From Candidatus Poribacteria bacterium (GTDB taxonomy: Bacteria; Poribacteria; WGA-4E; PCPOR2b), in the NCBI GenBank assembly GCA_965218095.1, contig OZ244587.1, positions 4,765,203 through 4,829,202 of the forward strand: DNA of 64,000 nt. The letters run 5' to 3'. The position numbers were made by a program, and so were the translations under genes. Numbering within the stretch: the stretch's first letter is position 1; every line of letters starts with the position of its first letter. Of this stretch, positions 7,596-55,929 are shown one piece after another. The notes beneath the pieces are model-generated. The model ran no database searches, had not been told where the DNA came from, and worked only from the letters and a program-made list of their open reading frames with translations.

Positions 7596-7603
7596 ATTTT
7601 TAT

Positions 7604-14286: not shown

Positions 14287-14295
14287 GAGGGACCG

Positions 14296-18541: not shown

Positions 18542-18561
18542 GGCTGTCGGAGGAGAAACCG

Positions 18562-34615: not shown

Positions 34616-35082
34616 TTTGAGAACTCCTTTTTAAGCCTTAACCCGATTTGGGCTTGCAATCTCGTATGATGACGCAATCGCCCCTCCCCTTTTGTATTCT
34701 TCGACAAAGAGGAAAAGACAGGTAAGAAGCATTGAGGTTTACGAGCCATCGGCTTCAGGTACAATCACCACTCTTCCACCTAACATAGATATTATGGCAT
34801 ATTATATGGGGTGTGTTCAAGGATAAAACGCAAAATGCTGATGAAATCAAGTCGTACACCGTTAAATAAATCTTGATGATAGTTATTTCGCTGTAGGTCA
34901 ATTTTCCAAAATTGACTCTCTGAAATCGCGTCGAGATTGGAATCTCGACCTACTGTTAAAACATAATTTACAGTGTAATACTACACGTTGGCGGAAATAA
35001 TGACCCCACTTTTATGCTAAACCTTCCGAACCGAGAATGAAACGGCCCCGGCCAGAGTGATTCCCGCTTGTGGAAACTATTA

Positions 35083-35238
35083 TAACCTGAGTTGCTAGTA
35101 TCATAGAGAAACCGAGTTTTTCACTTTCAGATTGTCTGATTTAGGGAAAATCAGTTGTATTTTTCCCTAAATCGTGTTCCTTATCTATAAAAAACTCGGT
35201 TTCTGACGCTTGCTTTATCAACTAGCAACTTGCGTTAT
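35083..35238. mobile_element. MITE-like palindromic element, copy A (about 155 bp, imperfect terminal inverted repeats)
   Basis: Identical, as a reverse complement, to 44766-44920. Nested internal inverted repeats (AGTTGCTAGT/ACTAGCAACT; GAAACCGAGTTTTT/AAAAACTCGGTTTC; TTTAGGGAAAA/TTTTCCCTAAA). Confidence 0.75.
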
Positions 35239-35303
35239 TATATAGAGTATGATACGCCGTTATGCACGAATCAGACTCATTTCATCCGATTGAGAGGAAA
35301 TGC

Positions 35304-35640
35304 TATGCAAAATTCATCAAGCTGCGGCGCAATTCTCATTGTCATTGATGGCTGCCGTCCCGGTGGTATCCAGCAAGCCAATACACCAAGACTCTCTTAG
35401 ATCGCCATTTTATCCTCGTCTAGAGCGATCATGGTGGGCACGAAAAAAGTCACGGCACAGATCTCCCTGAAGATTTGACGATTCCGCGGATTGCGGCCGG
35501 AGCGAAGGTCTCACCGATCGGTGAGATCAAGCAGCCGGTGCGTATTATTGACACCGCATTGACGCTTGCTCACGTTCTGGATGTGCTGTTTTCGGAGAAA
35601 CGGGAGGGACACCCGATTATGCGAATCTTTTGACTCGTGA
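35304..35640 (+). pseudogene. Remnant of an alkaline-phosphatase-superfamily gene; N- and C-terminal fragments in different frames
   Basis: N-terminal fragment MQNSSSCGAILIVIDGCRPGG... is followed by stops. A later frame reads ...PIGEIKQPVRIIDTALTLAHVLDV... like the C-terminus of an AlkP-family enzyme. Confidence 0.4.
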
Positions 35641-35864
35641 ATCTTCTGACGAACATCTGTTCAGGTCAAGTGAAAATCAAAAGTCCCTGAGACTAAAAAC
35701 ACAAAGTTTCAAAGGTATGAGCGTTTTGAGAGGTGAAAAAATAATTGAGTAAAAACCGAAATTCTGCTAAACTAATACCAATTTTCAATTCTGAACTGGT
35801 ATTATACTACGATTCAAACGCATCTTAACAATCACACATCTTAAAATCAGAAAGGGTAGGAGAT

Positions 35865-37157
35865 ATGCCGACCGATCTTGCACACCACATTCAAGCGACT
35901 GCTTTGGTCGACACACATGAACACCTGCGAAGGGAACCGGAGTGGCTGGAAAACGGACCCGACATTTTACAAGACCTGTTTGGGAATTACGTTCCCGCAG
36001 ACCTCAACACAGCAGGCGCATCGCCAGACGCGATGAAACGCTTGATGGATGCTTCAGATCCGGATATTGCCGGACGTTTCGAGGGTATTCAGGAGGCGTG
36101 GGAAGCGACGCAGTTCACCGGATACGGCGAAGCGGTGCGACTCATTGCGGAACATATCTACGGGATTGACGAACTCACCGGGGAAGGCCTTGAATCAGCG
36201 CAAGAGAAAATTAAAGTGCTACGCAAGCCCGGTGAACGCTATCGCCTGCTGCACGATGTCGCGAACCTAGATCATGTTCAAACTGACGACTTTTGTTGGC
36301 CCTGTACCCCGGATCATTCCGGGCTGGACTTCTTTCTCTATGACCTCTCATGGGCAGGATTTTGTAATGGACAGATCGATTCGGAGCAAATCCACGTCGA
36401 GACCGGCGTTGAAGTAAAAGATCTCAGAACGCTGAAACAGGGAATGGAAGCGATTTTCGCGAAGTATGCCCCTTGTGCGATTGCGGTGAAGGCGCAACAC
36501 GCCTACAACCGCACCCTCAATTGGATTGAACGGAACGACGTTGAGGCATCAGCCGCTCTCGGAAGAGTGCTGACTGCGCCTGAAGAGGAGATCAGCGTCG
36601 AAACTCGGCTCTGCTTGGGCGATTGGTGCTGGGCGCGGGGGGTTGAGTTGTCAATCGAACATAACCTCCCATTCAAGATCCATACCGGCTACTACGCGGG
36701 GAACGACCGAATGCCGGTACGTCGGATTCCTGCGGGGAATATGTGCGCGCTCTTTGGACGTTATCTAGACGCCACATTTGTCCTGATGCATATCGCCTAC
36801 CCCTACAACGATGAGCTCGTTGCACTGGCGAAGCACTATCGCAACATCTGGGTCGATCTTTGTTGGGCGTGGAGCATCGATCCGTACAGTTCCCGTGACT
36901 TTTTGCGTCGATTTCTGCACGCCGTCCCATCGAACAAGCTATTTGCGTTTGGCGGGGACACAGGCTGGCCCACAAGCTCGATGGCTTACGCGATCCAGGC
37001 GCGTAACGAGATTCGGCGCGCCCTTGAGGGGGAGATCGCGGACGGCTATATGACGGAAAAGAGTGCGATGCAAATCGCCACGCGCATCATGCGGGATAAT
37101 CAGTTCGCTTGCTTTGATGTCGAAGGGACACGGGCGAATATTCGCGCTGCTGCTTGA
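35865..37157 (+). CDS. Amidohydrolase-family metal-dependent hydrolase (TIM barrel)
   Basis: N-terminal VDTHEHL metal-binding motif. 430 aa. Confidence 0.65.
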   Translation: MPTDLAHHIQATALVDTHEHLRREPEWLENGPDILQDLFGNYVPADLNTAGASPDAMKRLMDASDPDIAGRFEGIQEAWEATQFTGYGEAVRLIAEHIYGIDELTGEGLESAQEKIKVLRKPGERYRLLHDVANLDHVQTDDFCWPCTPDHSGLDFFLYDLSWAGFCNGQIDSEQIHVETGVEVKDLRTLKQGMEAIFAKYAPCAIAVKAQHAYNRTLNWIERNDVEASAALGRVLTAPEEEISVETRLCLGDWCWARGVELSIEHNLPFKIHTGYYAGNDRMPVRRIPAGNMCALFGRYLDATFVLMHIAYPYNDELVALAKHYRNIWVDLCWAWSIDPYSSRDFLRRFLHAVPSNKLFAFGGDTGWPTSSMAYAIQARNEIRRALEGEIADGYMTEKSAMQIATRIMRDNQFACFDVEGTRANIRAAA

Positions 37158-37432
37158 ACAAATTAGGCTCAGATAACGCTGGTTATCGGCAGCGATTGTA
37201 AACATCAAGAATTCTAGGCAGGGTGAAAACTTGAACAAAAAAATCCCCAGTGATACAGTTCTCATCTTAAAGTGTGCCTATCTGTTTCAATGCCTTAGCT
37301 GCATTTTTACGAACCAAGTCATGTTGGTCTCTCAACGTATCTTTCAACGCAGGAATAGCTCTAGAGTCACCGTAGCATTTTCTCGTCTAAAATCGAATGA
37401 GTTATCACGCATTACACCTCACTCATCACGTT

Positions 37433-38698
37433 TCACTTCTTCCTCAGACAACACTGTTTGTACTTCTTGCCACTGCCGCAGGGACAGGGCGAATTACGGC
37501 CGACTTTCTGCGGGACTTCCACCTGTTCGGGGTGCATCAATGGCATAATGCTATCAGCGGGGCGTCCTGCTTGCAGCGCGGCAGCCATCATTTTCATCGG
37601 TCGGTCAGTGTGGTTGAAGAACATCTTATAGCCCGCGCAGAGATAGTTCAAACCGTCTTCGCCGCTTGGTGTTTTGATGAAACGGTTTTTCGGGCAGCCG
37701 CCGTTGCAGACGAAACGAACTTCGCAGTCCCGACAATACTGCGGCAAGGTGTCACGCTTGTCCGTCCCAAACTTCCGCTGGAATGGTGAGTCCACCAAGT
37801 CCTCCATCGGCGTGTCCATTACATTTCCGAGGAAGTATTCCGGATCAACGTAGTGATCACAAGAGTAGAGATCGCCGTTATGCTCAATTGCCATTGCGTT
37901 CCCGCAGGTCTCGTTGAAAATACATAAGCTCGGCTGATAGCCTAGCCAGCCTTCCAGGGCAACATCGAAGATCTGGACAAAGATCTTCCCAATATCGTTC
38001 ACAACCCACTCATCGAAGATTTCACAGAGGAATTTGCCGTACTGCTTCGCGTGTACCGAGCGATCTGTCACACCCCTCTCACCCACGCGCTCGACAGCGG
38101 GGATAAACTGCATGAACTGAACGCCAAGTTTCTTGAAGTAGTGGTACACCTCACGCGGATAATCTCCATTGTGGCTATTGACAACGCAGAGAACGTTATA
38201 ATCCACGTTATGCTTCTGTAGAAGCCGAAGTCCCCGAAGGACATCATCGGAGGAAGGCCTGCCCCTTTTGTCGTAGCGGTACTTATCGTGTAATTCAGGG
38301 GGTCCATCAATACTAATGCCGATCAGGAAGTTGTGCTGCTTGAAGAAAGTACACCATTCATCATTCAGGAGCGTGGCATTGGTCTGGAACGTATTCTGGA
38401 TGCGCATACCGGGGCGTCGGTATTTCTTCTGATATTCGACAGCGCGTCGGAAAAAGTCAACGCCCATCAACGTTGGTTCGCCGCCTTGCCAGGCGAAGGT
38501 AACTTCATTGACCTGCTGGGTTTCGATATATTGACGCACATAATTTTCCAGGACCGCATCAGTCATCCGAAATGAGTGCGTATTGGGGTAGAGTTGCTCT
38601 TTATCCAAATAGAAGCAATATTCGCAGTCCAGATTACAAATTGCCCCAATCGGTTTGGTCATCACATGAAACGCACGCGGGGTTTTGTATTCAATCAT
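37433..38698 (-). CDS. Radical SAM/SPASM maturase of the anaerobic sulfatase-maturating enzyme (anSME) type, with a C-terminal SEC-C metal-binding motif
   Basis: CNLDCEYCFY (CX3CX2C). Cys-rich SPASM region. Terminal SPCPCGSGKKYKQCC. Confidence 0.7.
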   Translation of the reverse strand: MIEYKTPRAFHVMTKPIGAICNLDCEYCFYLDKEQLYPNTHSFRMTDAVLENYVRQYIETQQVNEVTFAWQGGEPTLMGVDFFRRAVEYQKKYRRPGMRIQNTFQTNATLLNDEWCTFFKQHNFLIGISIDGPPELHDKYRYDKRGRPSSDDVLRGLRLLQKHNVDYNVLCVVNSHNGDYPREVYHYFKKLGVQFMQFIPAVERVGERGVTDRSVHAKQYGKFLCEIFDEWVVNDIGKIFVQIFDVALEGWLGYQPSLCIFNETCGNAMAIEHNGDLYSCDHYVDPEYFLGNVMDTPMEDLVDSPFQRKFGTDKRDTLPQYCRDCEVRFVCNGGCPKNRFIKTPSGEDGLNYLCAGYKMFFNHTDRPMKMMAAALQAGRPADSIMPLMHPEQVEVPQKVGRNSPCPCGSGKKYKQCCLRKK

Positions 38699-38856
38699 TT
38701 CATTTTATCCTTTGCTAAACATTGGTCGAGAGTCACCGCTACGTCAGCAGATAAGGGTCAACAACTTGCGCCACGCCGTACCAGCCATCAACAATACAGT
38801 GAGATTTTAACCAAGCCGGAGCAGGGATTAAGACAAAAGAAAAAACGCTGACCGAG

Positions 38857-40254
38857 CTACTTCTTCCGCCTTCCAATCTTCCCTACCTTCGTCTTGCCAT
38901 CCCTCTGGGTGGTAATCATTGCGACATTGAACACCCGCCGTTCATAACTGTGTGATGGACGGTTCACAACGCCTCCAAGCCCCCAAAAAGTCGATGAACT
39001 TCCACCATCGAAGTTGATGGCGTGTTTCACCCCGAGATCGCGTAAGAAGCCAGCCATTTCATAAAATGTCATTCCTATGCTATATTCTGCCTGTCGTCCA
39101 TCCACCACAATAAGGAAAAGTCGATCGTCGTTAAACCCTAATACACTCCGTGGATGCAATTGGGCGCCATTGTTGTGGCCGGAGGCAGAGCCTCCGCTCG
39201 ATTCGTGGAATTCGACAAGCTCGGGTTCTATTTCTCCATTCCGTAAGAGACGGATATTCCCCCCGATTCCGTCAGAAACGTGCTGCCATTGAGTTGGTGA
39301 AAGTGCGAGCTCAAGTTCCCCTGTTGTGCCTTCGCTCAATGTCGATTGCCACTCTTGCGCCAGATGACGATCGAGGGAGAGTACAATGCTGTCGCGGGGA
39401 ATGCTGTTGTTGCCGCTCCTGCTGACCGTATCGATCACAAAACGGCTGCGATATTTGCCTGTGAGTGGCAATTTGAGTTGCTTGAGGACGACTTCATAAC
39501 CACTTCGTGTGAGGGTCTGCGGGCCAAATCGGGACGTATAAATCACGGCGGCACACTCGGATTCGCGGATCTGATTAATGCAATCGATTTCAAGTACTTT
39601 TCCATTGATACGGAGAACCCCATTCAACTGAACGGCATCTAGCAGGAATTCACCGTCTGTTGTCACGCCGAAACTCGTTTCACCCCAGGAGGAAGGCGGA
39701 GAGTATCCCCACCAATCGCGCCGGGGGGGTATACTAACCAGTTCCCAATCTTGAATGTGGAGATTAAAGATTATTCCTCCGCGCCTCATACCATCTTCGC
39801 GGATGCCGAAACTGCCATTGACACCAGCTAACATCGGGATATCGCGTGCTGCGAGCCGTTTTGCCATGCTACTCATTGTTTCCCGGCCCAAGATGCGGCT
39901 GTTAGCAAGTTCAACCCCAAAGCGAAGATTTTTGGCGGTGCGATCCATCTCGGCAACATAAATCGCCGATTGCCGTTTATTCCACCAATCACGGTAGATA
40001 CGCAGCCCCCCCTGCCAATCGGATTTTTTAAGGTAATCTCGCCTTTTGGACGAAGGATTGGGAGAGACGGTGGTATGCTTGCTAACAATTCTGGAGATAA
40101 CAGAGGAAGACGAGAAATCTACACTATTTCCGGGTGTAGGTTGAGGCGCTGTTGTTCGCAACGCTCCTATCGCCAGAATCAAGAATATCATCACTCCCCA
40201 AACAGTGGCTACTTTTATGAGATAAACGCGCTGATCACTGTCTTTCATCTTCAA
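38857..40254 (-). CDS. Membrane-anchored phosphodiester glycosidase family protein (NAGPA-like)
   Basis: N-terminal TM helix. C-terminal region (...HAINFDGGSSSTFW...) resembles the phosphodiester glycosidase domain. Confidence 0.55.
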   Translation of the reverse strand: MKMKDSDQRVYLIKVATVWGVMIFLILAIGALRTTAPQPTPGNSVDFSSSSVISRIVSKHTTVSPNPSSKRRDYLKKSDWQGGLRIYRDWWNKRQSAIYVAEMDRTAKNLRFGVELANSRILGRETMSSMAKRLAARDIPMLAGVNGSFGIREDGMRRGGIIFNLHIQDWELVSIPPRRDWWGYSPPSSWGETSFGVTTDGEFLLDAVQLNGVLRINGKVLEIDCINQIRESECAAVIYTSRFGPQTLTRSGYEVVLKQLKLPLTGKYRSRFVIDTVSRSGNNSIPRDSIVLSLDRHLAQEWQSTLSEGTTGELELALSPTQWQHVSDGIGGNIRLLRNGEIEPELVEFHESSGGSASGHNNGAQLHPRSVLGFNDDRLFLIVVDGRQAEYSIGMTFYEMAGFLRDLGVKHAINFDGGSSSTFWGLGGVVNRPSHSYERRVFNVAMITTQRDGKTKVGKIGRRKK

Positions 40255-40768
40255 TCTTCCTCATAGTTTACGAAAATGATTCCATACAGGGATAATTGCT
40301 TGGCTGACATCCCGTCACATTGTAGCGCAAACTTGTTCAAGGTGCAAGCACAATAGAGCTCGGAGCATTTATTTTAGTCCCCAACATCCGGTACGAGATT
40401 ATGAAGAAGCGAATCGATAAGGCGAGGATCAAGGGACGCGCAGAACGGCTGACGTAGCCGGGCAAGATCGCTATCGTCTACTCTCAAGCAAAGGAGGTTT
40501 TTGAGTGCCGAGAATATATCGACTACCTCTAGGCGTCGGGGTATTTGACTGAAGAGTTGGAGGGATGTCGACTTGGAAGAGCTCCAGGGAATTCAGGGAT
40601 TGAAGGCGCTGCGAGTCATAGTGGACGTGCGGGGAGTGGCTCAAGAACCGGTCACTGCGGCAGAAGAAGTAGAGCAAGCTGTACAGGCTATAGCACAGGT
40701 TAGTTCGCTATGAATCGTGAATAGAAATGGTAAACGTAAAGCGTAAAATGTAAGAGAAAAGGTTCTTC

Positions 40769-42388
40769 TTACGTTTTACATCCAATATGTAGATGATCGA
40801 TGAGATACTGTGCGTTGAGCGCTTCTCCGGTCGCATGGATGAGCAGCTCGTTCCAATGAATGCTGGCGCCGGGCTTGAAGACTCTTTTGCGCAGATAGTT
40901 CCCCACACGGGGTTCGTCCACATAACCCGTTGATTCAACGCTTGCTCCGTCCAGAACGTCCTGATCTATGGTATGTTGCAATTGAGAAGCAACCATTTCT
41001 CCCAAGAGGTAGTTGTGATAATAAACCGGCGCGGTTGCAATGTGGATTTTCGCCGCCCAATCGGGTTCGTTCCGATTTTCCGGGCGGGTGACGAGTTGGA
41101 AGTGTTCAACCAAATCCCACCATAGCGTATTCAAATCCTGATCCGGATCGCAGTAGAGCGCACGTTCAAAGTGGATCATCACCATCGCCCAACGCACGAA
41201 GATCAGCATCCTCAACCGGAAGGATTCGATCGTTTCCGCTGCAATCGCCTCATTTTGCGCGGGGGATAAGTGAATAATCTTGTCCAGCCACGCCGCGTTT
41301 CGAGCAAGACGCCCCATAAGCATTGCAATCGCTTCCGTCGTGATCAGGTGCGAGGGCTGTCGCAGCAAGAATGGAAGCGCCTCATCCAGATATTTATCGT
41401 AAACTGCGTGACCATATTCATGCAACAACGTTCCCATCCACCTCGCTGTCGCTCTGACGTTCGCAAGCACCCGCACATCTTGCTTCCTGTCTATATTGAT
41501 GCAGAAAGCATGCTGATCTTTCCCCGGATGTTCAAAGAGATTGCTCCTTTCAACCAGCTCTTCGATGGGCAGATTGATTCCACGATAAAAATCCTTCGTT
41601 ATGGCAACTAGAGCCTCACCCTGGAATAGCTCATCAAAGTTGATTTTGCCGACCTCCGGCACCTCTTGAAAGAAGGGATCGGCGTTATGCCATGGGCGCA
41701 GTTCATCCACTGTGACCCCGAAGCGATTAGCCAGTTCTTGATCCAATTTCCCCTTCACCTGTCGGAAGGGTGCATCTGTCAATGTCTCCAACCGACTCAC
41801 GGTGTCGAAAAGCTGATCCGGATCGACTTCGCTGAGAGTCAGAGACATCTGATAATAGTCAGCAAAGCCGACAGTACGTGCAGCTTTATTGCGCCGATGG
41901 GCTAAAGCGATTATATCTGCTGCGACTTTACGTCCGATCTGTTTGCTTCCTTCCCACACCTTCTGTCGCCTGACATTGTCGCCCTCTGTCTTCATCACCT
42001 CAACGATTTCGTTATCGGTCATTTCTGTTCCATCGACAACGGTGCGATGGGCATGGAAAACCTGCTCAATTGCCGTCTGGCGCTTGACCAGCTCTTCGAT
42101 CATTTCCCGCGGAAGTTGGTGCGAGGTAAACTCTAAAATGAGTAAATGCAATTGCCGTGTAAGCTGCGGCTCTTCAATTGCGTTTGAGGCTTGAAAATCT
42201 CTCAATTGTTGGAAGTGGTCCCGATCTGAGAAAATAAGACGATATTGCGTTTCTAATTCGGCGACCAACTGCGTTGCTTCATCGGAGCCTGTTAGGCTTG
42301 CCTCCCAATAACTTGCGTTCAACTGTCTCTCAAGCGGTTGAATCTGTGTGACCAATTGATCAATAAATGTTTGTAACTGCGATTCCAT
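40769..42388 (-). CDS. M3-family oligoendopeptidase (PepF-like)
   Basis: HEYGH zinc motif. 539 aa. Confidence 0.8.
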   Translation of the reverse strand: MESQLQTFIDQLVTQIQPLERQLNASYWEASLTGSDEATQLVAELETQYRLIFSDRDHFQQLRDFQASNAIEEPQLTRQLHLLILEFTSHQLPREMIEELVKRQTAIEQVFHAHRTVVDGTEMTDNEIVEVMKTEGDNVRRQKVWEGSKQIGRKVAADIIALAHRRNKAARTVGFADYYQMSLTLSEVDPDQLFDTVSRLETLTDAPFRQVKGKLDQELANRFGVTVDELRPWHNADPFFQEVPEVGKINFDELFQGEALVAITKDFYRGINLPIEELVERSNLFEHPGKDQHAFCINIDRKQDVRVLANVRATARWMGTLLHEYGHAVYDKYLDEALPFLLRQPSHLITTEAIAMLMGRLARNAAWLDKIIHLSPAQNEAIAAETIESFRLRMLIFVRWAMVMIHFERALYCDPDQDLNTLWWDLVEHFQLVTRPENRNEPDWAAKIHIATAPVYYHNYLLGEMVASQLQHTIDQDVLDGASVESTGYVDEPRVGNYLRKRVFKPGASIHWNELLIHATGEALNAQYLIDHLHIGCKT

Positions 42389-42704
42389 TTTATGTTCCTC
42401 GTTGGTAACCGCTCAGATGATCGGGCAAACTGACAGTTTGTGTTACAAGCATCTGCTAGATTGCGTTTATTTCCGATTCTTCTCCGTTTACCACCTGAAT
42501 GGTTACTCTCGTTGATGAATTCGGGGCTGGGTTAGGTTATCATAGGCAGCATGAATTGTCAAACTGAAAAAGGGATTGCCCACGCATAAAAATTGGATCG
42601 ATTCTATGGGGAATTTCTAGGATCGCAATTTTCTCCTTGATCTTCAGCGCAAGTTAGAATATAATCTCCCTATTGTACCAATATGGCTGTACTATCATTA
42701 GAAA

Positions 42705-43589
42705 ATGGATCATCACGTTTCACGAAAGGAGTTTGCCATGGATCTGACGAAACAACCCCCACGCAGTCCATACTGCACAGCGGTTCTTGGTCTGATGGGT
42801 GCGGCGCGAGCCGCGGATAAAGCGCGCGCCGAGCTCAACAACACGATTGGTGAATATCAATTTGGTCGGGATTCAGGGCTGGACAGACGCACGTTGGAAT
42901 TTCTGGGGCTCTCGCCTGAAGAATTCTTCGATGCAGTTAAAGCCTACCCAGATAATCAATCGTTGAGCGCCGGTCTGAAGGAGAAAACAGGTAAGACCAT
43001 CGAAGAAATTAAAGCGTACAACGAAGCCCAGCGAAATCGCACGCCTCCGGATGAGCAGTCACGTCAACGCTTTGAGCAGCGGAGACAGAATATCGGACGC
43101 CTAGACATCAAGATGATGTCTGACATGCTCGATGCAGAAGATGTGCATGAGTTTGGACCGCCGACAGAGCTCACTGCAGGCCCTCCACGAAGTCCTCACT
43201 CCGGTTCATTGTTGGGGATCGCGTGTTTGGCGCGAATGGCAGACAAAGCGAGGGCGAAACTGGCGGGAACGATCGGTGAGTACAAGTACGGAGAGGATTC
43301 CGGGCTTGATGAAGGCACGTTGGAATTTATCGGATTGACTGCCAATGAATTTCTCGAAGGCGTCCGTCAAAGTCCTGATGACGCTGCACTTGCCAGTTGG
43401 CTGCTTGAGCGTGTCCAGAAGACCGATGCAGAGATCGCGGACTGGAACGCGCAGCGACGTGCGCGAGGCCCATGGAATGACGAGATACAGAAGATATTTG
43501 ATCAACGGGCAAACGCCGCCGGGCGTCCCGATCTCACGACGTTCCTCAATTTGCTCGATTGTGAGGATGCACACGATTTTCCAAGATAA
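42705..43589 (+). CDS. Protein with two tandem DUF5069-like repeats
   Basis: Two homologous halves (…PRSPY…GEYQFGRDSGLD…TLEFLGL… and …PRSPHSG…GEYKYGEDSGLDEGTLEFIGL…). Confidence 0.5.
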   Translation: MDHHVSRKEFAMDLTKQPPRSPYCTAVLGLMGAARAADKARAELNNTIGEYQFGRDSGLDRRTLEFLGLSPEEFFDAVKAYPDNQSLSAGLKEKTGKTIEEIKAYNEAQRNRTPPDEQSRQRFEQRRQNIGRLDIKMMSDMLDAEDVHEFGPPTELTAGPPRSPHSGSLLGIACLARMADKARAKLAGTIGEYKYGEDSGLDEGTLEFIGLTANEFLEGVRQSPDDAALASWLLERVQKTDAEIADWNAQRRARGPWNDEIQKIFDQRANAAGRPDLTTFLNLLDCEDAHDFPR

Positions 43590-43678
43590 ATGTTATAAAT
43601 TCTCAACATCATTCTAGGTTCGATGAAGCGGTGCGTGTCATTGAGACGTGAAAATCAGCGGACGATAGGCACGAAAGC

Positions 43679-44233
43679 ATGAAAAACTACAGCGTCAAAA
43701 TGATCCGCGAACATATAGATAACATCCCCAACATCTCCGTCCCAGAAGGGTTCTCCATCAGAAACTACCGTCCCGGCGAGGGACACATCTGGACACGTAT
43801 CCAGAGAGCCGCCGAGCCGTTTCTTGAGATCGAAGATGACCTGTTTGATCGGGAGTTCGGTCACAATCTGAAAGCGATGGAAGATCGGAGTTTCTTCCTC
43901 GTCGCGGACGAAGGAAAAGAGATCGGGGCAATCACCGCATGGTGGAATCCAGACTGGAAAGACGGGGAATGGGGGCAGATCCACTGGGTCGCAGTACACC
44001 CCGACTATCAGGGGCGTGGACTATCCAAACCGATGATGTCGGTTGCGATGAAACGCCTCAAGCAATTTCATGACCGCTGCTTCCTCGGCACATCAACGAG
44101 ACGGATTGTGGCAATCAAGGTCTATCTGGATTTTGGGTTTTACCCCGACCTCGAATCCGAAAATAGCCGTGAAGCGTGGGTGGAGGTCGCGTCGGTCTTA
44201 GAACACCCGATCTTAAAGGCGTGCGGGTTTTAA
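43679..44233 (+). CDS. GNAT-family N-acetyltransferase
   Basis: Acetyl-CoA-binding motif QIHWVAVHPDYQGRGLSKPMM. Confidence 0.7.
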   Translation: MKNYSVKMIREHIDNIPNISVPEGFSIRNYRPGEGHIWTRIQRAAEPFLEIEDDLFDREFGHNLKAMEDRSFFLVADEGKEIGAITAWWNPDWKDGEWGQIHWVAVHPDYQGRGLSKPMMSVAMKRLKQFHDRCFLGTSTRRIVAIKVYLDFGFYPDLESENSREAWVEVASVLEHPILKACGF

Positions 44234-44331
44234 ATCTGCGATAAATTACGTTTTACGCATCATACATATCACATTTCGTGTATGTATGTCGCATTCATTG
44301 CAAAACAACATCGTTTTAGACAGAGGAAATC

Positions 44332-44700
44332 ATGCAACGCCTTTTCTTCGCACTCGGTTCTAGTTGTGCCTTGTTAGCTGTGATAACAGGCGCATTCGGC
44401 GCGCATGCCCTTAAAACGAAACTCTCATCCGATATGCTGGCAACCTTTGAGATTGCTGTGCGCTATCAGATGTATCATGCGTTGGGATTGATCGCTGTGG
44501 CCTGGGCTTCATCACAATGGAGTAGCCAACTTATCTCCGCGGCCGGCTGGTTATTCGTGGTTGGTATCGTTATCTTTTCAGGGAGTCTCTATATTCTGGC
44601 CTTGAGCGGAATTCGCTGGCTTGGAGCGATGACGCCGCTCGGTGGGCTCGCCTTTATCGTTGGCTGGCTGTGTCTTCTGTGGGCTGTAATACGAAACTGA
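44332..44700 (+). CDS. DUF423-family small membrane protein
   Basis: Four predicted TM helices. 122 aa. Confidence 0.55.
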   Translation: MQRLFFALGSSCALLAVITGAFGAHALKTKLSSDMLATFEIAVRYQMYHALGLIAVAWASSQWSSQLISAAGWLFVVGIVIFSGSLYILALSGIRWLGAMTPLGGLAFIVGWLCLLWAVIRN

Positions 44701-44765
44701 GAACACGAGACAATCTGTATCAACCCGGAGGATCTTGACCTGCGAGGGAATGGGATGGTGTACTA

Positions 44766-44920
44766 TAACGCAAGTTGCTAGTTGATAAAGCAAGCGTCAG
44801 AAACCGAGTTTTTTATAGATAAGGAACACGATTTAGGGAAAAATACAACTGATTTTCCCTAAATCAGACAATCTGAAAGTGAAAAACTCGGTTTCTCTAT
44901 GATACTAGCAACTCAGGTTA
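44766..44920. mobile_element. MITE-like palindromic element, copy B (inverted relative to copy A)
   Basis: Reverse complement identical to 35083-35238. Confidence 0.75.
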
Positions 44921-45112
44921 CTATACTAAACCTTTGAGAAACCGCATTGTAGCTTGGAATTAACGTCGCAAGAGTGTATGAATTCAAGAGTGCATGGGTT
45001 CATTGAACGCTTGAACTCAAATCCCGAGTCCTCGATACGCCAAATGGAATAGATCTTCTTTGAGAGCTATCCACTTAACAAATATAAGTACCTGCCGCCA
45101 AAAACTTGCTTC

Positions 45113-46030
45113 ATGTTCCTACCCATGAATCTATTTCTCCAAATCGCTCACGGTGTCATCGGGGCGGTCATCATATCCCTCTTTTTCAGCCTCAGATCTA
45201 GTTTCGGTGAAGCGCGACATACCCTCAGCATCATCGGAGCCATCGCGATTATTATTGCAAGTGGCTACATCCTGCGGACACGGCTCATCCGGTGGGGAAG
45301 TCGGCAAATCTGGTTGAAATACCATCAAAGGCTCGCATCTTTCGGATTGAGCCTTGTCTTTATCCACTCCGCCTTTCGCCCCTTCTCATGGCATTCGTGG
45401 CTGACATTCGCTCTCGCGCTGCTCAACCTTGGGACAGGCATTGCCGTGAGTCTCACTACACGGCGCACACGACGTGTCCTGCTCCGCTGTCATCTCGCCC
45501 TCGCGCCAATTTTGCTAATTGGCATCGTCGTACACGGCAGGGAAAAATTAGATCACGATGAATTCTTTCCCTTGACAGAAGAACACGATATTCCGTGTGT
45601 AAGGTGTCACACATCAGATCGGCTGCTGTTTACCATCAATTCGCGCTTTCAAAGTGATTTAGACGGTGAGGGCAATGCCTCGGATGACTTACAGTGGGAG
45701 TTTGGCCTTCAGGCGACTTCACTTTCTCAGCATGCAGCGATTTCGACGAAAAAGGGAGATGGCGGTTGGCTGATAACCGATGAGCCGAACCACCAGAAAT
45801 ACATGGTCAGGAAAGTGGCAGATCGGCTGCACGTTTATGCCAATTCTCCATACAAGGGTTACACCTGTCTCACCTGTCATGTTCACAACACCCCTGAGAT
45901 TCAGTTTGCTCATGAGGCTCACGGTGTGACTTCCTATAACGCATGCTTCAACTGCCATCAAACGGTCATTGGTGGAGAAAAATATGGCAGACGAAAAGCG
46001 AACTGGGACTATAATCCAGTTAGGAAATGA
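45113..46030 (+). CDS. Membrane-anchored triheme c-type cytochrome
   Basis: N-terminal 150 aa contains about 4 TM helices. Three CxxCH motifs (CVRCH, CLTCH, CFNCH). Confidence 0.65.
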   Translation: MFLPMNLFLQIAHGVIGAVIISLFFSLRSSFGEARHTLSIIGAIAIIIASGYILRTRLIRWGSRQIWLKYHQRLASFGLSLVFIHSAFRPFSWHSWLTFALALLNLGTGIAVSLTTRRTRRVLLRCHLALAPILLIGIVVHGREKLDHDEFFPLTEEHDIPCVRCHTSDRLLFTINSRFQSDLDGEGNASDDLQWEFGLQATSLSQHAAISTKKGDGGWLITDEPNHQKYMVRKVADRLHVYANSPYKGYTCLTCHVHNTPEIQFAHEAHGVTSYNACFNCHQTVIGGEKYGRRKANWDYNPVRK

Positions 46031-49688: not shown

Positions 49689-50261
49689 TCACCCCTCATA
49701 AATGTCCTGAAACTGCTCTAACGCCGCCGCTAGATTCGCGGCAATCAGATCGCCAACATAATCGTCATCCACCGAGGTCGTGCCGTCATTGGCGATGTCA
49801 ATCCCATCGCCCTTGATGTTCCGTGTCGCTTGCGCTGCTATGGCGTCAAGTTTGCTTTCATCACTCGATGTGAACGGTCGGGACACCGCTATCGTCTTTG
49901 TGCCGTCGGTCTCCTCGGTAATCGTGATGCCCACGCCTTGGGCAATCGAATCGCCGCCGCTACTGCTCACCTGCGTCCACGCACTGCCGTCTGCCGATAT
50001 ATAAATCCCACCCGTGTCGCCCGTCCGAAAATAGATCGCCCGACGCCCCGACACCAGTAGGCTCTCCGCAGGGGCGTCATCACCTACCAAGATCAGATCC
50101 TCGCTCGTGAACTTGATCAGGTTGCCATACGTCATCCCCTTCAAGTCCGCAAGCGTGGCATCTCCACTGCTGGGCACCGCCGCCGGCAGCCGCACGTCGT
50201 CCAACTCCGACTCCGCAACCTCCGGCACCGCTGTGGTATCGATGATATTTCGTTCTGGCAT
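49689..50261 (-). CDS. Hypothetical protein (190 aa; Gly/Asp/Thr-rich C-terminal half)
   Basis: Coherent ORF convergent with trpG. No recognisable domain. Confidence 0.4.
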   Translation of the reverse strand: MPERNIIDTTAVPEVAESELDDVRLPAAVPSSGDATLADLKGMTYGNLIKFTSEDLILVGDDAPAESLLVSGRRAIYFRTGDTGGIYISADGSAWTQVSSSGGDSIAQGVGITITEETDGTKTIAVSRPFTSSDESKLDAIAAQATRNIKGDGIDIANDGTTSVDDDYVGDLIAANLAAALEQFQDIYEG

Positions 50262-50280
50262 CGTCTTACATTCCCGTAAC

Positions 50281-50336
50281 TGTGCACAAAAAAAAGGCGC
50301 AAACTCCCGGTATCATGCCTGATACCGGGGCTTTGC
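50281..50336 (-). terminator. Rho-independent terminator, minus-strand sense (nested hairpin followed by a T-run)
   Basis: Minus strand reads GGGCGCAAAGCCCCGGTATCAGGCATGATACCGGGAGTTTGCGCC then TTTTTTTTG. Confidence 0.5.
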
Positions 50337-50492
50337 GCCCTCAAATCCCTGTTATTACGCAGCGCAAACAGTATACCCAAAAGTATAACCGTTTGTCAAT
50401 CTGTTTTATCGTCCTGTTTTATCGTCTAATCACCATTGCCCTCCATATCAAATAGACCCGGTATCCCATTCAGGATCAAGCCCCAAGCGATT

Positions 50493-50882
50493 TCATCTGG
50501 TAAGTCTTAGCAAAGCTATTTCATATTCTAAACCATCTATTTCAGATCCTAAATCATCTATTTCAGATCCTAAACTAGATATTTCAGATTCTAAATCATC
50601 TATCTCAGATCCTAAATCATCTATCTTAGAAATCAGGGACCCGGACCTATATGTTGGCTGGGTACCACCAATTCTTTTATTCAGCTTGTCGATTCTTGAA
50701 TTCAATGTGTCAACACTACTGGTAAGACTTTGGATAGCCCTGCGTAACTGATGATCAGACGCTGGACTATAACTTACGTCGATTGCAAAAACAACAACTA
50801 CAGCGGTTATCAATAACCCAATCCATTTGATCAGTTTTATGCGTCCCATTTTTATCATCTCCTTATCAGACATTTTACTCAA
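50493..50882 (-). CDS. Small membrane-anchored coiled-coil protein with tandem D-D-L-G-S-E-I heptad repeats
   Basis: N-terminal TM helix. The DNA shows 21-bp tandem repeats at 50520-50630 (atctatttcagatcctaaatc...). AT-rich. Confidence 0.5.
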   Translation of the reverse strand: MSKMSDKEMIKMGRIKLIKWIGLLITAVVVVFAIDVSYSPASDHQLRRAIQSLTSSVDTLNSRIDKLNKRIGGTQPTYRSGSLISKIDDLGSEIDDLESEISSLGSEIDDLGSEIDGLEYEIALLRLTR

Positions 50883-51377
50883 TATAATTTACCTGATACT
50901 TATCCAGAAATAAATCAAGGTGTTTTCTTGCTTCCAATTCATTTGTGCCCCTGTATATTGGATATCCTTGGCATTTACCATCAGGAAAGCGCAGAATTCC
51001 ACTGATAATCCAATAACCAGAATCCTATATCAATTTAACAGCCTCTAAATGCTCATCATCCACAAAAGTACTACCTCCCTTAAACTCCCTTAAAACCAGT
51101 AAGAGTTATTTTAGCACACCTCCTTTCAGATTGCCCCGGATCTGATCACGACTGAGATCTAGCGTTTTTTTGTTTGACAAGACTTCGTTGGGTTTGCTAC
51201 AATATGCAATGCATGTGGCTACCCCTAGCTGCCACACCAGGGATAGCCTCAAGCCGAACAACCAAGTTCGTTAGGAGCGCCCCCATTGGTTGAGCGACTT
51301 TGGTATATTATAACGCATTTCTACCCTAAAACAGAAAAAAAATATAGAAATTGCCATAATATCACCGAAATATACCG

Positions 51378-51428
51378 AAAAAAAGGCGGGATCGCTCAAA
51401 TTCTGACGCGATCCCGCCTTTTTTTTGT
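51378..51428. terminator. Bidirectional rho-independent terminator located where the HsdM homology stops
   Basis: AAAAAAA then GGCGGGATCGC-tcaaattctga-GCGATCCCGCC then TTTTTTTTG. Confidence 0.6.
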
Positions 51429-51831
51429 CGCTGTCGTAGATATCCCCTTTCACATCGGTATCCAGACCGCTCCATGTTTCATCATTGATGAGTTGAATGA
51501 TTTGCTTCAGTTTGACGGGATCTTGGATCCTGTTTTGGGATTTTCTGAAGATTACACCTAGCGTACCGCTCTCCAGAGCCAACGTGTCGAGGATATCGCG
51601 GTAGTGTGTTTCAAGGGCAGCGCCCTCCTTGGCGACTAAACCTTCCCAGTCTTTCCCTGCGGGGACAACGGGGTCCTTGTTGTATGGCGGTTTGGTCTGC
51701 TCGTCCGCCATTTTCAGAAATAGGAGATAGGTCAACTGTTCCACATAGTCGCCGTAGCTGATCCCATCATCACGAAGGACGTTACAATAATTCCACAGTT
51801 TTTGCACAATAGCTGATGAATCGTTTGGCAT
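51425..51831 (-). pseudogene. hsdM: Type I RM methyltransferase HsdM: N-terminal domain only (truncated)
   Basis: LWNYCNVLRDDGISYGDYVEQLTYLLFLKMADEQ...TWSGLDTDVKGDIYD is the HsdM N-domain. The catalytic domain (xxFYTP, NPPF) is absent. The ORF runs on through the terminator into AT-rich DNA. Confidence 0.55.
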
Positions 51832-51871
51832 TTTCGGGATGGTTCTCCTGCGGTTGTATGGGAGGGCACGT

Positions 51872-52255
51872 TTATACCGGCGGCATTATTACCAATTGAC
51901 TGGCAAGAGCCAGCTTTCTTGCGATGCGATCGCGCGCGATCTTGTCTGCCGGGAACGGTGTGATATTCGCATGTAGTTCATGAGGGATGATGTCTGGAAT
52001 AACTGTAAGATGATTCTCATAAACGACCTCTGCCAAAAGATCTGCCCTTGCTCTCAGTGTTCTTTCGCCTTGGACGTTTTCCCGCCCAATCACCCACACT
52101 TCGCTCTCAGAGAGGGATGAGATACGAAACACAGACAGATCCTCGCTATATAGAGGTGGCATGAATGCCGCATATTTGACAACCTTTTTTTCTACGGAAA
52201 AATGTCTTTTAGAAAAAATAAAGCGGGTAAGTTTCTCGCCTCCTGAAAAATTCAT
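51872..52255 (-). CDS. Hypothetical protein (127 aa) within the RM island
   Basis: ORF coherent with its neighbours. No known motif. Confidence 0.35.
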   Translation of the reverse strand: MNFSGGEKLTRFIFSKRHFSVEKKVVKYAAFMPPLYSEDLSVFRISSLSESEVWVIGRENVQGERTLRARADLLAEVVYENHLTVIPDIIPHELHANITPFPADKIARDRIARKLALASQLVIMPPV

Positions 52256-52265
52256 ATCATGTCCT

Positions 52266-52688
52266 TTATTGAAAGAGGCGGTTTAACGTTGTAAGAAAAC
52301 CCGGTAGAAGGGCAAAGTCCGACAAGGCACAAATTCCTGCAATCTCCCGCTTATCACTAAAAAAGGCACCGTAGATGACGTGACCGTCACCGTATAGGCT
52401 CATCGTCGCTATGCCATCCCCTGGTCGCCATTCCAACCCAATCCCTCCATCTTCCAACCACATCATCTCAGGCATTGGAATATTACGCTGCATCTGCTCC
52501 AGCAAAGAAAGTGTTTCATTGTACGCCGATTCAGGGACAGGCTCAACTTCGTTATCCAACTCACAGGCTTCCTCAACCTCCTCGCGGATATCCTCTAGCT
52601 CTCGTTGCACCTGTTTCCTAAACAGTGCTTCATCTACAGGAGGCCGAACGAAATCAAGTTTCTTTTTTGGGGTTTCCATAATGTTCAC
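52266..52688 (-). CDS. Hypothetical protein (140 aa) within the RM island
   Basis: ORF with an acidic N-terminal half. No known motif. Confidence 0.35.
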   Translation of the reverse strand: MNIMETPKKKLDFVRPPVDEALFRKQVQRELEDIREEVEEACELDNEVEPVPESAYNETLSLLEQMQRNIPMPEMMWLEDGGIGLEWRPGDGIATMSLYGDGHVIYGAFFSDKREIAGICALSDFALLPGFLTTLNRLFQ

Positions 52689-52950
52689 CTATCCGATTTT
52701 GAGATACGTTTCTTAATGAGGTATCTCCGAAATCTGATTCATCGTTATCCCCTCGTAGCTCTGCCAGCAGTACGTCTCCGATATAATCATCGTGGCGTTC
52801 GCCTACGTCTGTTACCTCACACTCCAGCGTCCCTGCCAACGCCAGGAGGGGATCGGTGCCCTGCGTTTCCTGGGCTGGATCTTCGTTTTCTGGAATATTA
52901 TCTAAGGCGATTTCGGCAGATAAATCTGTCCACTCTCCTCGTGCCCTCAT
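52654..52950 (-). CDS. Hypothetical acidic protein (98 aa) within the RM island
   Basis: The ORF overlaps its downstream neighbour by 35 nt. No known motif. Confidence 0.3.
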   Translation of the reverse strand: MRARGEWTDLSAEIALDNIPENEDPAQETQGTDPLLALAGTLECEVTDVGERHDDYIGDVLLAELRGDNDESDFGDTSLRNVSQNRIGEHYGNPKKET

Positions 52951-53015
52951 ACCTAATATCTCCCAATTAAAATTAAGACTTTAACAAGCAATTGGCAATC
53001 AAATTACACTTAATT

Positions 53016-53804
53016 TTAACCTAAGTTTTCACTAAATACAATCTCTTTCTGTACCTTGATCCGTTCAAGCAAGACACTAGCAGGTTCATCGTTTGGGTCT
53101 TGCGACACCAATTTTCCAGAGAAGGCTTTTTTGAGAATTGACTGACGCAATTGCTCGGCGCGTTTCAGTTCTGCCGTAATAGTTTTTTCCACTTTGTCGG
53201 CAGCAAAGAGATGACGTTCGACTTCTTCAACAAGAATCTGCTGCTCTTTTTCCGGTGGCATAGGGACTGCAAGGAGTCTGAGTTTTGTGCCGTTTACATT
53301 TGCCTGTCCTGCCTGTTGAGACACAACCGATAAAATCCAATCTTTACCATACACGGAGTTAATATAGTACGCTACAATCATCGAATCAATATGTGGATTA
53401 AACCGTACCCTAATAAGATATGAAGCGAACGAACACGGGTTGGGTATTCCTGTATAAACTGCCGTTTTGCCAACTAATTCACGGCTATTTGTGCGATTGA
53501 ATAGCAAATCCCCTTTATTCAGCAACAACTCTGGAAATTCATCGTGTTCTTTCGGGAGATATTTCAGATTATTCAGAACGATTTTACCGTCAACAATATT
53601 CCCCATTCTCAGCACAGGTATATCGTTTGAATCCTCGCTTGTTTTTTTTGATGAGCCGTATTGGATTTTTGTCAAGAGTTGTTCAACAGTTGCCCAAGTC
53701 CATCCCTTTGGTAACTTTGGCAGCTCATTCGTATCAGGTGCAACAGGTTCTTTATACTTCGCCTTCCATTTATCATCTTTGGGTATTTCTCCCTTTGCCT
53801 GCAT
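53016..53804 (-). CDS. hsdS: Type I RM specificity subunit HsdS, C-terminal half (TRD2 + conserved helix)
   Basis: TRD followed by the conserved ...LRQSILKKAFSGKL... In the same frame as the upstream half, separated by a single TAG. Confidence 0.65.
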   Translation of the reverse strand: MQAKGEIPKDDKWKAKYKEPVAPDTNELPKLPKGWTWATVEQLLTKIQYGSSKKTSEDSNDIPVLRMGNIVDGKIVLNNLKYLPKEHDEFPELLLNKGDLLFNRTNSRELVGKTAVYTGIPNPCSFASYLIRVRFNPHIDSMIVAYYINSVYGKDWILSVVSQQAGQANVNGTKLRLLAVPMPPEKEQQILVEEVERHLFAADKVEKTITAELKRAEQLRQSILKKAFSGKLVSQDPNDEPASVLLERIKVQKEIVFSENLG

Positions 53805-53825
53805 CTGCTCAAGCTGCTCTGCCTC

Positions 53826-54512
53826 CTACTTCTCCCGCCGCGCTTTGAGAATACGCTCAAGTAGTACAGAAGCAGGTTCAATCCCGTCCTGATGCTCCGC
53901 CCGCCACGCTTCAGTCAGCTTTCCTTCAAAGGCAGCTTTCAGGACGGATTGGCGATACTGCTTGAGTTGGGATTGTGCCTTGTGGAGTGCGTTAATGCCC
54001 GCATCAAGTTTGGCGAGGAGTTCTTCGATTTTGGTGACGATGCGGTATTGTTCGGGGAGTGGGGGTAGAGGGATTTCAAAGGTTTTGAGTTGGTTCCCCG
54101 TTATCGCATTAAAAGTTGTTCCAGCACCTCTGCCCGCGAGTTCATCTTCATAGGCACGCATCAAATAGAAGATGAAAAACGGCTCAATACCACTTAACCC
54201 ACGGATTGCTGCAAGACCTCTACCTACGCAGGATTTTTCAGGGCATAAGTTCGTTGGACCAACAGGTGCGCGAACAGAAATAAATACGTCCCCTTTTTCA
54301 GCGATTTTTTTCGGTGCGGCACACCACTTTTGTGGCGTTGGGTAGATCTCACCAAATTCAAGTTTACCTTGATAAAAAGGAAGTCCTTTTCCGTCAGTAT
54401 TATAGGTTGATGATGGTGGCGATTGCCCCAATATAATTTTGCTGATTTCCTCTAATCTCGTCCACACCCACCCATCGGGCAGCTCAGACAAACCTACATC
54501 CGTTTCGCTCAT
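53826..54512 (-). CDS. hsdS: Type I RM specificity subunit HsdS, N-terminal half (TRD1 + conserved helix), ending at an in-frame TAG
   Basis: ...LPEQYRIVTKIEELLAKLDAGINALHKAQSQLKQYRQSVLKAAFEGKL... 4-nt overlap with the fic start. Confidence 0.65.
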   Translation of the reverse strand: MSETDVGLSELPDGWVWTRLEEISKIILGQSPPSSTYNTDGKGLPFYQGKLEFGEIYPTPQKWCAAPKKIAEKGDVFISVRAPVGPTNLCPEKSCVGRGLAAIRGLSGIEPFFIFYLMRAYEDELAGRGAGTTFNAITGNQLKTFEIPLPPLPEQYRIVTKIEELLAKLDAGINALHKAQSQLKQYRQSVLKAAFEGKLTEAWRAEHQDGIEPASVLLERILKARREK

Positions 54513-55699
54513 ATCACATGCTTCCTTTGGTTCATTGATTTTGTTCTTTCTGTCATGATTATATTGAGTATTTCATCTGCAACAAACAGACGGTTTCGCC
54601 GCCATCCGGTTATTTCCCTGAGTGTGCCTTTTTCGATAAGATAATCCACTCCCCGCTGAACGGTGGGAAAGGGCATCTCCCAAGCCTTCGATAATTCTGA
54701 AATTGAGATAATAGGACTTGCAAACAGATAGTCAATCAAGCGGTTTACAACCTTCAGCACCCTTCGACCGGCTGCAATTGCTCTGTATCGGTTTTGTAAG
54801 TCAAGCAATTTTTGAACCGTCAAAAGGGCATCTTCTGACTGTTGACGAATCCCGTTTAAGAAAAATGTGAGCCAAGCTTTCCAGTCCCCTTTTTGGCTTA
54901 CATTCAACAGCAATTTATAATATTCATCTCTATGCTTCTCAAAAAAATCGGAAAGATAAAGGAGGGGCTGCGATAACAACTCCTTTTCCAATAACATAAA
55001 CGTAATAAGAAGCCTGCCGATCCTTCCATTGCCATCAAGAAACGGGTGAATCGCCTCAAACTGATAATGAACCAGAGCGCATTGAATCAATGCCGGTTCC
55101 CTTGCGTTGGAATGGATGTATTTTTCCAAGTCTGAAAAACAACCTTTCATCTCTGGGTCCGGCGGAGGAACATAGGTTGCGTCCATCAAAGTACACCCGG
55201 GGCTACCAATCCAGTTTTGGCTCGTCCGCATCAAACCCGGGGTTGCACGTTCACCCCGCACCCCCTTCATTAGAATTCCGTGTATTTCACAGGTCAGCCG
55301 AGAACTTATCGGCAACTCTCGCAACCGTTTGATTCCATGTTCCATGGCTCTAACATAGTTGAAGATCTCTTTTACATCGGATGCAGGGGACGGCTCCGTT
55401 TCATCTGCTTCAAAGAGAAAGAGATCATCTAAACCGGATTGGGTGTTTTCAATTCTCGAACTCATTACGGCTTCACGCCGAATAAAAGGGCCAATCAACA
55501 GATGCGGATTAGGAAGCAGTTGCCCTGCACCGGATAACTCTCCAAGTTTGCTGTCTGCTTTTGATAAAAGATTAGCTAACTCCCAATCCACTTCGATTTT
55601 TGATGGGAGTGGATTCGGCACATAAGCCGAATATGGGGGACGGCTTATCGTGCGAATACATTTACCAGCGGTTGAATTTTTGAAATCTTCCGGATTCAT
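54509..55699 (-). CDS. fic: Fic-family protein (AMPylation motif) with a C-terminal winged-HTH
   Basis: HPFLDGNGRIGR Fic motif. C-terminal wHTH-like region. Confidence 0.85.
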   Translation of the reverse strand: MNPEDFKNSTAGKCIRTISRPPYSAYVPNPLPSKIEVDWELANLLSKADSKLGELSGAGQLLPNPHLLIGPFIRREAVMSSRIENTQSGLDDLFLFEADETEPSPASDVKEIFNYVRAMEHGIKRLRELPISSRLTCEIHGILMKGVRGERATPGLMRTSQNWIGSPGCTLMDATYVPPPDPEMKGCFSDLEKYIHSNAREPALIQCALVHYQFEAIHPFLDGNGRIGRLLITFMLLEKELLSQPLLYLSDFFEKHRDEYYKLLLNVSQKGDWKAWLTFFLNGIRQQSEDALLTVQKLLDLQNRYRAIAAGRRVLKVVNRLIDYLFASPIISISELSKAWEMPFPTVQRGVDYLIEKGTLREITGWRRNRLFVADEILNIIMTERTKSMNQRKHVI

Positions 55700-55722
55700 T
55701 TTTTATCACTTTACGTTAATAA

Positions 55723-55890: not shown

Positions 55891-55929
55891 TGATAACAGC
55901 AGGGATTTTATCCAATTGAGGCATCTACC

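Follow-up and report, generated by a model that had tools for sequence, protein, structure and literature searches.

A mobile miniature inverted-repeat transposable element of Candidatus Poribacteria, probably derived from the IS982 family

In a 64,000-nucleotide stretch of a Candidatus Poribacteria genome (assembly GCA_965218095.1, contig OZ244587.1, positions 4,765,203 to 4,829,202; referred to here as the window), two identical copies of a short palindromic element were found in inverted orientation on both sides of a 9.5-kb gene block. Copy A occupies 35085-35235 on the plus strand, and copy B, its exact reverse complement, occupies 44768-44918 on the minus strand. It is very likely that this pair represents a non-coding, hairpin-forming MITE (miniature inverted-repeat transposable element) derived from an insertion sequence (IS) of the IS982 family. 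The empty copy-B site in sister strains proved that the MITE was mobile. Candidatus Poribacteria is a phylum known mainly through metagenome-assembled genomes (MAGs), and the pair provides a clean, dated case of recent transposition in it.

The sister loci, designated L010, L011 and L012, were reached through homologues of a 305-aa open reading frame (ORF) at 45113-46030; these homologues were labelled Candidatus Poribacteria, and the best of them was 98% identical. The three loci and the window were 99.3-99.5% identical to each other over 14-18 kb and fully collinear. Copy B was present in the window and in L012, where the site reads GGTG-TACTATA-[151 bp]-TACTATA-CTAAACC, and absent from L010 and L011, where it reads GGTG-TACTATA-CTAAACC with a single TACTATA. 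The difference between the filled and the empty site was exactly 158 bp (151 + 7, or 155 + 3). In the window, the left TACTATA duplication of copy B lies at 44761-44767 and the right one, established by strain alignment and exact comparison, at 44919-44925. Copy A was found in all three sister loci, and thus in all four strains compared, with 0-2 single-nucleotide polymorphisms and with TATTATA on both sides; in the window, this 7-bp direct repeat is located at 35078-35084 and, by exact comparison, again at 35236-35242, and it has the TA-NNN-TA form typical of the MITE family.

Considering that L010 and L011 contained copy A and lacked copy B, it could be concluded that the two copies arose from independent transposition events. 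Copy A is the older one, common to all strains compared; copy B arrived recently and still varies between members of a species-level cluster. Poribacterial relatives at a greater distance (74% protein identity) were not syntenic and were therefore uninformative on the age of copy A. The polymorphism of copy B may be used as a strain marker.

Exact comparison demonstrated that 35085-35235 was the reverse complement of 44768-44918 at 151 of 151 positions. The earlier note on this DNA had described identical inverted copies, which was correct, but the 156-nt identity that it gave for 35083-35238 consisted of the 151-bp core and the shared TA bases of the flanking duplications. The TA-containing duplications that it had suggested also exist, but its TTA and CTA are the middle of the 7-bp repeats TATTATA and TACTATA. 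In a repeat search, the window yielded one long inverted pair (35078-35238 / 44765-44925, 161 nt, 99%), and the second and last pair was 32 nt long at 75%. The G+C content of the MITE was 36%, against about 48-50% for the window. The termini of the MITE are imperfect inverted repeats, ACCTGAGTTGCTAGT ... ACTAGCAACTTGCGT. The left repeat of copy A, ACCTGAGTTGCTAGT (35085-35099, plus strand), and the right one, read on the minus strand as ACGCAAGTTGCTAGT(TG) (35221-35235), were identical at 12 of 15 positions and differed at positions 3-5, and the element ends follow the pattern AC-NNN-AGTTGCTAG. When the 11-mer core GAGTTGCTAGT was searched for with 1 mismatch allowed, 4 matches were found in the window versus 0.64 expected, and all four were element ends.

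The whole MITE is a long imperfect palindrome, in which 114 of 172 aligned columns match its own reverse complement. Its computed fold had an energy of -31.1 kcal/mol (z -6.95) as DNA and -53.6 kcal/mol (z -6.99) as RNA, and in neither case was a shuffled sequence as stable; the long hairpin predicted in the earlier note was borne out by these values (z about -7). No ORF was confined to the MITE, and a chance TTG-started frame of 56 aa starts in its last six bases and exits into the flank. Small size without coding capacity, terminal inverted repeats and a target-site duplication evident from an empty and a filled site characterise prokaryotic MITEs, and all of these were found here; one more such feature, terminal repeats shared with an autonomous IS, was found in other phyla, where IS982-family elements have ACCCAAGTTGCTAG ends. 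Together with the hairpin body and the mobility seen at the copy-B site, this upheld the MITE-like character previously assigned to the pair.

A very stable predicted hairpin and two intact copies within 64 kb would also suit an immobile sequence, either a simple segmental inverted duplication or the gene of a structured RNA. Such an origin is extremely improbable, since the presence/absence polymorphism was precise and accompanied by a duplicated target, and no Rfam family matched the MITE. Moreover, across the MITE family the termini were conserved and the interiors unrelated, which is the opposite of what is expected of a structured RNA.

The relationship of the MITE to the IS982 family was found at its ends. 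The ends of IS982 elements have 5'-AC and the conserved positions AC(N)6T(N)5TT, and their direct repeats are variable in length (PMC7335449); for ISNsp1 of Nostoc, a member of this family, the inverted repeats are given as 16/17 and the direct repeat as 6 (PMC7335449), and direct repeats of 0-10 bp are recorded for the ISfinder IS982 entries (table in PMC7335449). The right end of the MITE, read from AC as ACGCAAGT-T-GCTAG-TT, fits the IS982 positions exactly and matches the autonomous IS ends at 13 of 15 positions. The left end fits AC(N)6T(N)5T and shares 12 of 15 positions with the IS982-family end ACCCAAGTTGCTAGT. The direct repeats were also variable, being 7 bp in the window and 5-9 bp across the MITE family.

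A tblastn search starting from the Lactococcus IS982 transposase led to a plasmid of Nostoc flagelliforme and to a gene on it that is annotated as IS982-family. The corresponding element starts with TA-ACCCAAGTTGCTAGTTAT and ends with ...CAACTTGGGT-TA; copies in Nostoc sphaeroides and Scytonema hofmannii had the same ends and TAATA duplications, and the elements of all three species start with ACCCAAGTTGCTAGTTA. The transposases of these Nostocales elements scored 170-185 bits on the NCBIfam model NF033520 (IS982), the cutoff of which is 130. Autonomous elements with MITE-like ends were 926 bp and roughly 1.06-1.09 kb in length and were found in Acidobacteria-like and Nostocales DNA. At one metagenomic locus (L190), which also came up in the scan for the MITE termini described below, a 926-bp IS982-type element and a 155-bp MITE were located side by side, each flanked by TAATTA, and the relatives of the transposase at this locus were labelled Pyrinomonadaceae/Acidobacteria. 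Six further copies of the 926-bp IS, on at least 6 contigs of one sample, had ACCCAAGTTGCTAG at both ends, and the duplications of this IS were TAATTA, TACTATA, TAATTTA and TAAGTA. Therefore, autonomous elements with such ends make duplications of the TA-N(1-4)-TA kind, as observed in the window. The NF033520 scores cover the Nostocales transposases; for those of the 926-bp element and L190, the matches carry precomputed PF01609/PF13612 domains, and two named ones among them are annotated as IS982 family transposase.

According to the proposed mechanism, a DDE transposase of the IS982 type, supplied in trans from elsewhere in the genome, would recognise the ends of about 15 bp (AC-NNN-AGTTGCTAG-T) and insert the MITE at TA-NNN-TA, and 7 bp would be duplicated as the staggered cut is repaired. 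If the invariant terminal TA were counted as part of the element, the duplication would be 3 bp. This is the cut geometry that we infer for the insertion of the MITE. Copies A and B are separate insertions in two intergenic sites of the Poribacterial chromosome. To our knowledge, IS982 transposition is poorly characterised, and the TA-Nx-TA target and the shared ends add to what is known of the family.

The target was further studied in a metagenome scan for the MITE termini, in which at least 125 unique elements were found. Among the matches listed, an AC start was present in 106/125 and a GT end in 110/125, TA lay directly outside each end in 104/125, and flanking direct repeats of 5, 6, 7, 8 and 9 bp were found in 50, 28, 4, 1 and 1 of the 125 elements, respectively, the duplications having the form TA-N(1-3)-TA. 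In a shuffled-partner control, the values were 7.2, 0.85 and 0.05 for 5, 6 and 7 bp. The Poribacterial copies had 7-8-bp duplications in six cases, a small sample in which the 8-bp repeat of one locus (L143) matches at 7 of 8 positions, whereas elsewhere the duplications were mostly 5-6 bp.

The TA located directly beyond either end of the AC...GT core in copy A and copy B, and on each side of 104/125 family members among the matches listed, would also agree with a MITE of the Tc1/IS630 type, for which insertion occurs at TA and TA alone is duplicated. An IS630/Tc1-like partner had been suggested in the earlier note. This suggestion was refuted by the length of the insertion, since duplication of TA alone would add 153 bp, whereas 158 bp was observed. 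In addition, the 5-7-bp flanking repeats were far above the shuffled control, and the ends matched IS982-family elements, the tested transposases of which passed the IS982 model. A Tc1/IS630 origin is thus exceedingly unlikely.

Derivation of the MITE from an IS5-family or PIF/Harbinger-like element, with TAAC...GTTA ends and a 3-bp duplication, is the other alternative of this kind and is very improbable. When the terminal TA is given to the element, the duplications of copies A and B become TTA and CTA, and 3-bp duplications occur in the IS1031 and ISL2 groups. The tested Nostocales IS982 transposases also matched IS5 models, but weakly (26-39 bits, far below the IS5 cutoffs), whereas these autonomous carriers scored 170-185 bits for IS982. 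With the short reading, the duplications would be mostly 1-2 bp (TA-N-TA 50/125, TA-NN-TA 28/125, among the matches listed), and the 1-bp duplication that it implies for the family-wide 5-bp TA-N-TA class is implausible. Finally, AC ends combined with AC(N)6T(N)5TT are hallmarks of IS982 (PMC7335449).

Several observations weigh against the derivation of the MITE from an IS982-family element by 7-bp duplication. The sequence alone fits AC ends with a duplication of 7 bp as well as TAAC ends with a duplication of 3 bp; the boundaries used here follow the IS982 convention of AC ends. Two copies, in Scytonema (L004) and in L143, suit the short reading better, being perfect with 3-4 bp and having one mismatch with 7-8 bp. 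The left end of the MITE has TA for TT at positions 15-16 and is thus one base off the IS982 pattern. No matches were found when JGI metagenomes were scanned for the subfamily arm (AGTTGCTAGT N5-30 GAAACCGAGTTTTT) or when viral contigs were scanned for the inner stem pair of the subfamily. Within the 64 kb, two intact copies and one or two relics were visible. In addition, neither the window nor about 150 kb of related Poribacterial DNA yielded an IS982 transposase, and the cognate enzyme is unobserved in the phylum.

That the window contains no transposase, as stated in the earlier note, agreed with Pfam scanning of its ORFs (150 aa or longer) and with tblastn using an IS982 transposase, both of which revealed none there. 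No Poribacterial IS982 transposase was found among the homologues listed, and these lists were saturated by Cyanobacteria and Acidobacteria-like proteins. We infer that the MITE was mobilised by a transposase of the IS982 type that is or was present in this Poribacterial genome.

A degenerate relic of the same MITE subfamily, ACCTGAGTTGC ... AGAAACCGAGTTTTT ... TTGCTCAGGT, was found in an intergenic region at 5806-5902. Its local alignment score to the MITE was 71, which exceeded the maximum of 47 in a null set of 400 random 150-nt windows (mean 24, standard deviation 5). A possible second relic arm, AAAACTCGATTTCTCTGGGATAGGTAGCAAGTTTGATTA at 7147-7210, was weak (its score of 44 lay near the 99th percentile of the null) and was not relied on. 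The relic at 5806-5902 and a sister-strain contig that ends inside copy A hint at additional copies. The relic is positioned upstream of the CRISPR-Cas locus, and its region also has direct repeats at 4463-4531/7380-7448 and 5738-5806/7318-7386.

Other members of the MITE family were revealed when species-representative genomes were scanned for both termini: they were present in filamentous Cyanobacteria and in two other Poribacteria. Poribacterial loci also yielded further members, several within 3 kb at one locus (L007) and one at another (L142/L143). The earlier note had reasoned that the pair would be a plain segmental repeat if, genome-wide, only these copies existed, no transposase had matching terminal inverted repeats and there were no inversion isoforms; at the level of the family, both further copies and autonomous elements with matching ends were found. 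The family is large, and a previously unlabelled set of cyanobacterial and other MITEs is now tied to one IS982 subgroup because of the shared end sequence and the defined TA-Nx-TA target. This subgroup appears to be spread over at least three phyla (Cyanobacteria, Acidobacteria and Poribacteria). The length of the TA-Nx-TA spacer seems to differ by lineage, with N=1-2 versus N=3-4, and if this is true, transposase variants with different cut stagger would be expected.

In L007 (positions 2900-5400, Poribacterial MAG JAJECO010000084), a MITE was found in nearly every intergenic gap between four metabolic genes; four or five elements of the family lie in 2.5 kb, and two of them adjoin head to tail with a TCTA in common. 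The MITEs of L001, L006 and L008 (Phormidiaceae, Microseira wollei) have internal runs of the heptamer GCTAATT or its complement, which recall the short tandem heptamer repeats of cyanobacteria. A scan of viral contigs with a single terminal repeat gave at least 120 loci, essentially all of which were chance matches inside phage genes; apparent elements of 1,692 bp were rejected as coding sequences, and the only real member among the viral-contig matches listed was 286 bp long (L081). When the literature was searched for the terminal repeat sequence, nothing came up except unrelated primers and papers on porcine epidemic diarrhea virus (PEDV).

The 9.5-kb block between the copies was also studied. 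Pfam domains found in it were Amidohydro_2, Radical_SAM with SPASM and SEC-C, NAGPA, Peptidase_M2/M32/M3, DUF5069, GNAT and DUF423, so most of the gene list in the earlier note was confirmed. The AlkP-family gene that it had placed at 35305-35865 was not: the pseudogene fragments in this interval had no Pfam match (one of the three queries, a hand-stitched frame, was disregarded), and the resemblance is at motif level, with IDGCRP in an ORF fragment and SDHGGH in a manual frame reading. An in-frame stop at 35396-35398 was common to all four strains.

The arrangement of the copies raised the question of whether they form a functional invertible segment or a composite transposon carrying the block; inversion of the block had indeed been proposed. 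The copies, which lie 9.5 kb apart, have perfect inverted homology over 151 bp, and homology of such length is a competent substrate for RecA-type recombination; furthermore, the pair has valid transposase sites at its outer ends. Both possibilities are nevertheless very unlikely. The four strains, two of which have both copies, were collinear over the block, and the block was unchanged and in the same place in L010 and L011, which have copy A alone. Because each copy keeps its matched flanking duplications, which would be mixed by an odd number of inversions, it could be concluded that there was no net inversion since insertion. Considering that the block was present without copy B and that the outer flanks differ, which shows that the pair was not transposed as a unit, the block did not arrive as a composite transposon. 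Moreover, Pfam revealed neither an invertase nor a recombinase within the block or close to it, and promoter and terminator scans inside both elements gave nothing above chance. Inversion by homologous recombination is mechanically possible, but no evidence for it was found. The block is ordinary chromosomal DNA that was in place before copy B. The pair is mobile DNA of an ordinary kind and shows no sign of being a gene switch, and in annotation, the 9.5-kb block should not be treated as a mobile unit. Short perfect repeats of this kind can break assemblies or promote rearrangement.

One position of the MITE, GATTT[A/T]GGG, was polymorphic between strains, with A in both copies of the window and T in both copies of L012. 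This agreement between the copies, seen at a single site, could be due to gene conversion over the 9.5 kb and is a point in favour of their interaction. If this were true, crossover products would be expected as a minority isoform in which the amidohydrolase, radical-SAM maturase, glycosidase and peptidase genes are inverted. The broader picture, in which the copies interact now and produce a minority inverted isoform of the block and in which an IS982 subgroup occupies at least three phyla with a lineage-specific cut stagger, is unlikely.

Outside the block, Pfam searches with the proteins of the window revealed a CRISPR-Cas locus of type I-D and a restriction-modification island of type I, and tRNAs were also present. 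The CRISPR-Cas locus (8237-18230) encodes a Cas3-like helicase, Csc2, Cas6 and a Cas4-Cas1 fusion, and it also has an ORF of 1020 aa that had no Pfam match and is probably Cas10d. The main array, at 19040 to about 23500 downstream of this locus, contains about 60 repeats of CGATCAATGATAAGAATCTCGATTACGAGATTGAAAC, and two of its spacers occur twice (20404-20518 is identical to 21009-21123). A 78-nt unit that starts with the 3' end of the CRISPR repeat (GAGATTGAAAC) is repeated in tandem 4.5 times, at 98% identity, at 18195-18542, between the main array and the cas4-cas1 fusion gene (16548-18230). Just upstream of the start of the cas operon at 8237, two units resembling the CRISPR repeat (GAATCTCGATT[A/G]CGAGATTGAAAT) lie about 23 nt apart at 7503-7600; they have the appearance of a mini-array and may represent a cas-regulating or CreA/CreR-like RNA. 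The palindrome GTCGAGATTGGAATCTCGAC at 34929-34948, upstream of copy A, resembles the core of the CRISPR repeat, and the similar GTCGAGATTCACATCTCGAC was found inside the L143 MITE (at about 11700).

The restriction-modification island (49689-58830) contains HsdM fragments, two HsdS, Fic and HsdR. Its gene content varies among the four strains (window versus 14500-20900 of L010/L011/L012), and hsdM of the window appears fragmented. Short repeats are also present in the island, namely a 21-nt unit x5 at 50516-50624 and a 41-nt unit x4 at 55715-55884. In the related Poribacterial genome of L144, an IS605-type OrfB/TnpB gene lies at 4092-5309, where L142 and L143 have TIR-domain genes.

Compared with the IS982-family ISs that have ACCCAAGTTGCTAG ends, the MITE of the window is alike in its 5'-AC ends, in repeats of about 15-17 bp fitting AC(N)6T(N)5TT, in variable direct repeats (5-8 bp here) and in the TA-Nx-TA target; even the same duplication, TACTATA, is common to copy B and one autonomous copy of the 926-bp IS. 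It differs from them in being 151 bp long and non-coding, in needing mobilisation in trans and in its unrelated interior. GCTAGT is confined to the left end in the Nostocales ISs but is present at both ends in the MITEs and the 926-bp IS.

Among small elements of filamentous cyanobacteria, the Nezha MITE of Anabaena/Nostoc was reportedly described by Zhou et al. 2008. Nezha forms a hairpin and shows empty and filled sites between relatives (PMC3184786), as the MITE of the window does. However, its direct repeat is about 10 bp, as in the example CATTATCTAC (PMC6042816), and it is linked to ISNpu3, whereas the family studied here has 5-8-bp TA-Nx-TA repeats and IS982 ends; identity with Nezha was therefore rejected on the length of the direct repeat, 10 bp against the 7-bp TA-NNN-TA duplication. 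REP and BIME elements are 20-40-bp palindromes with GTAG/CGTC heads and no target duplication (PMC3733652), and this identity was rejected because the element is 151 bp long with a duplicated target and AC ends.

The closest precedent for the proposed origin is an IS982-derived MITE of about 240 bp in the Cardinium cOegib endosymbiont, which comes from ISCca4 (PMC9769881). Like the MITE of the window, it is non-autonomous, has IS982-like inverted repeats and has spread through intergenic regions; it differs in host phylum, length and sequence, and its parental IS is present in the same genome. MITEs are also abundant in Cyanobacteria (PMC11602168). IS982-derived MITEs are thus already known, and what is documented here is an insertion polymorphism in Poribacteria and no new kind of system.

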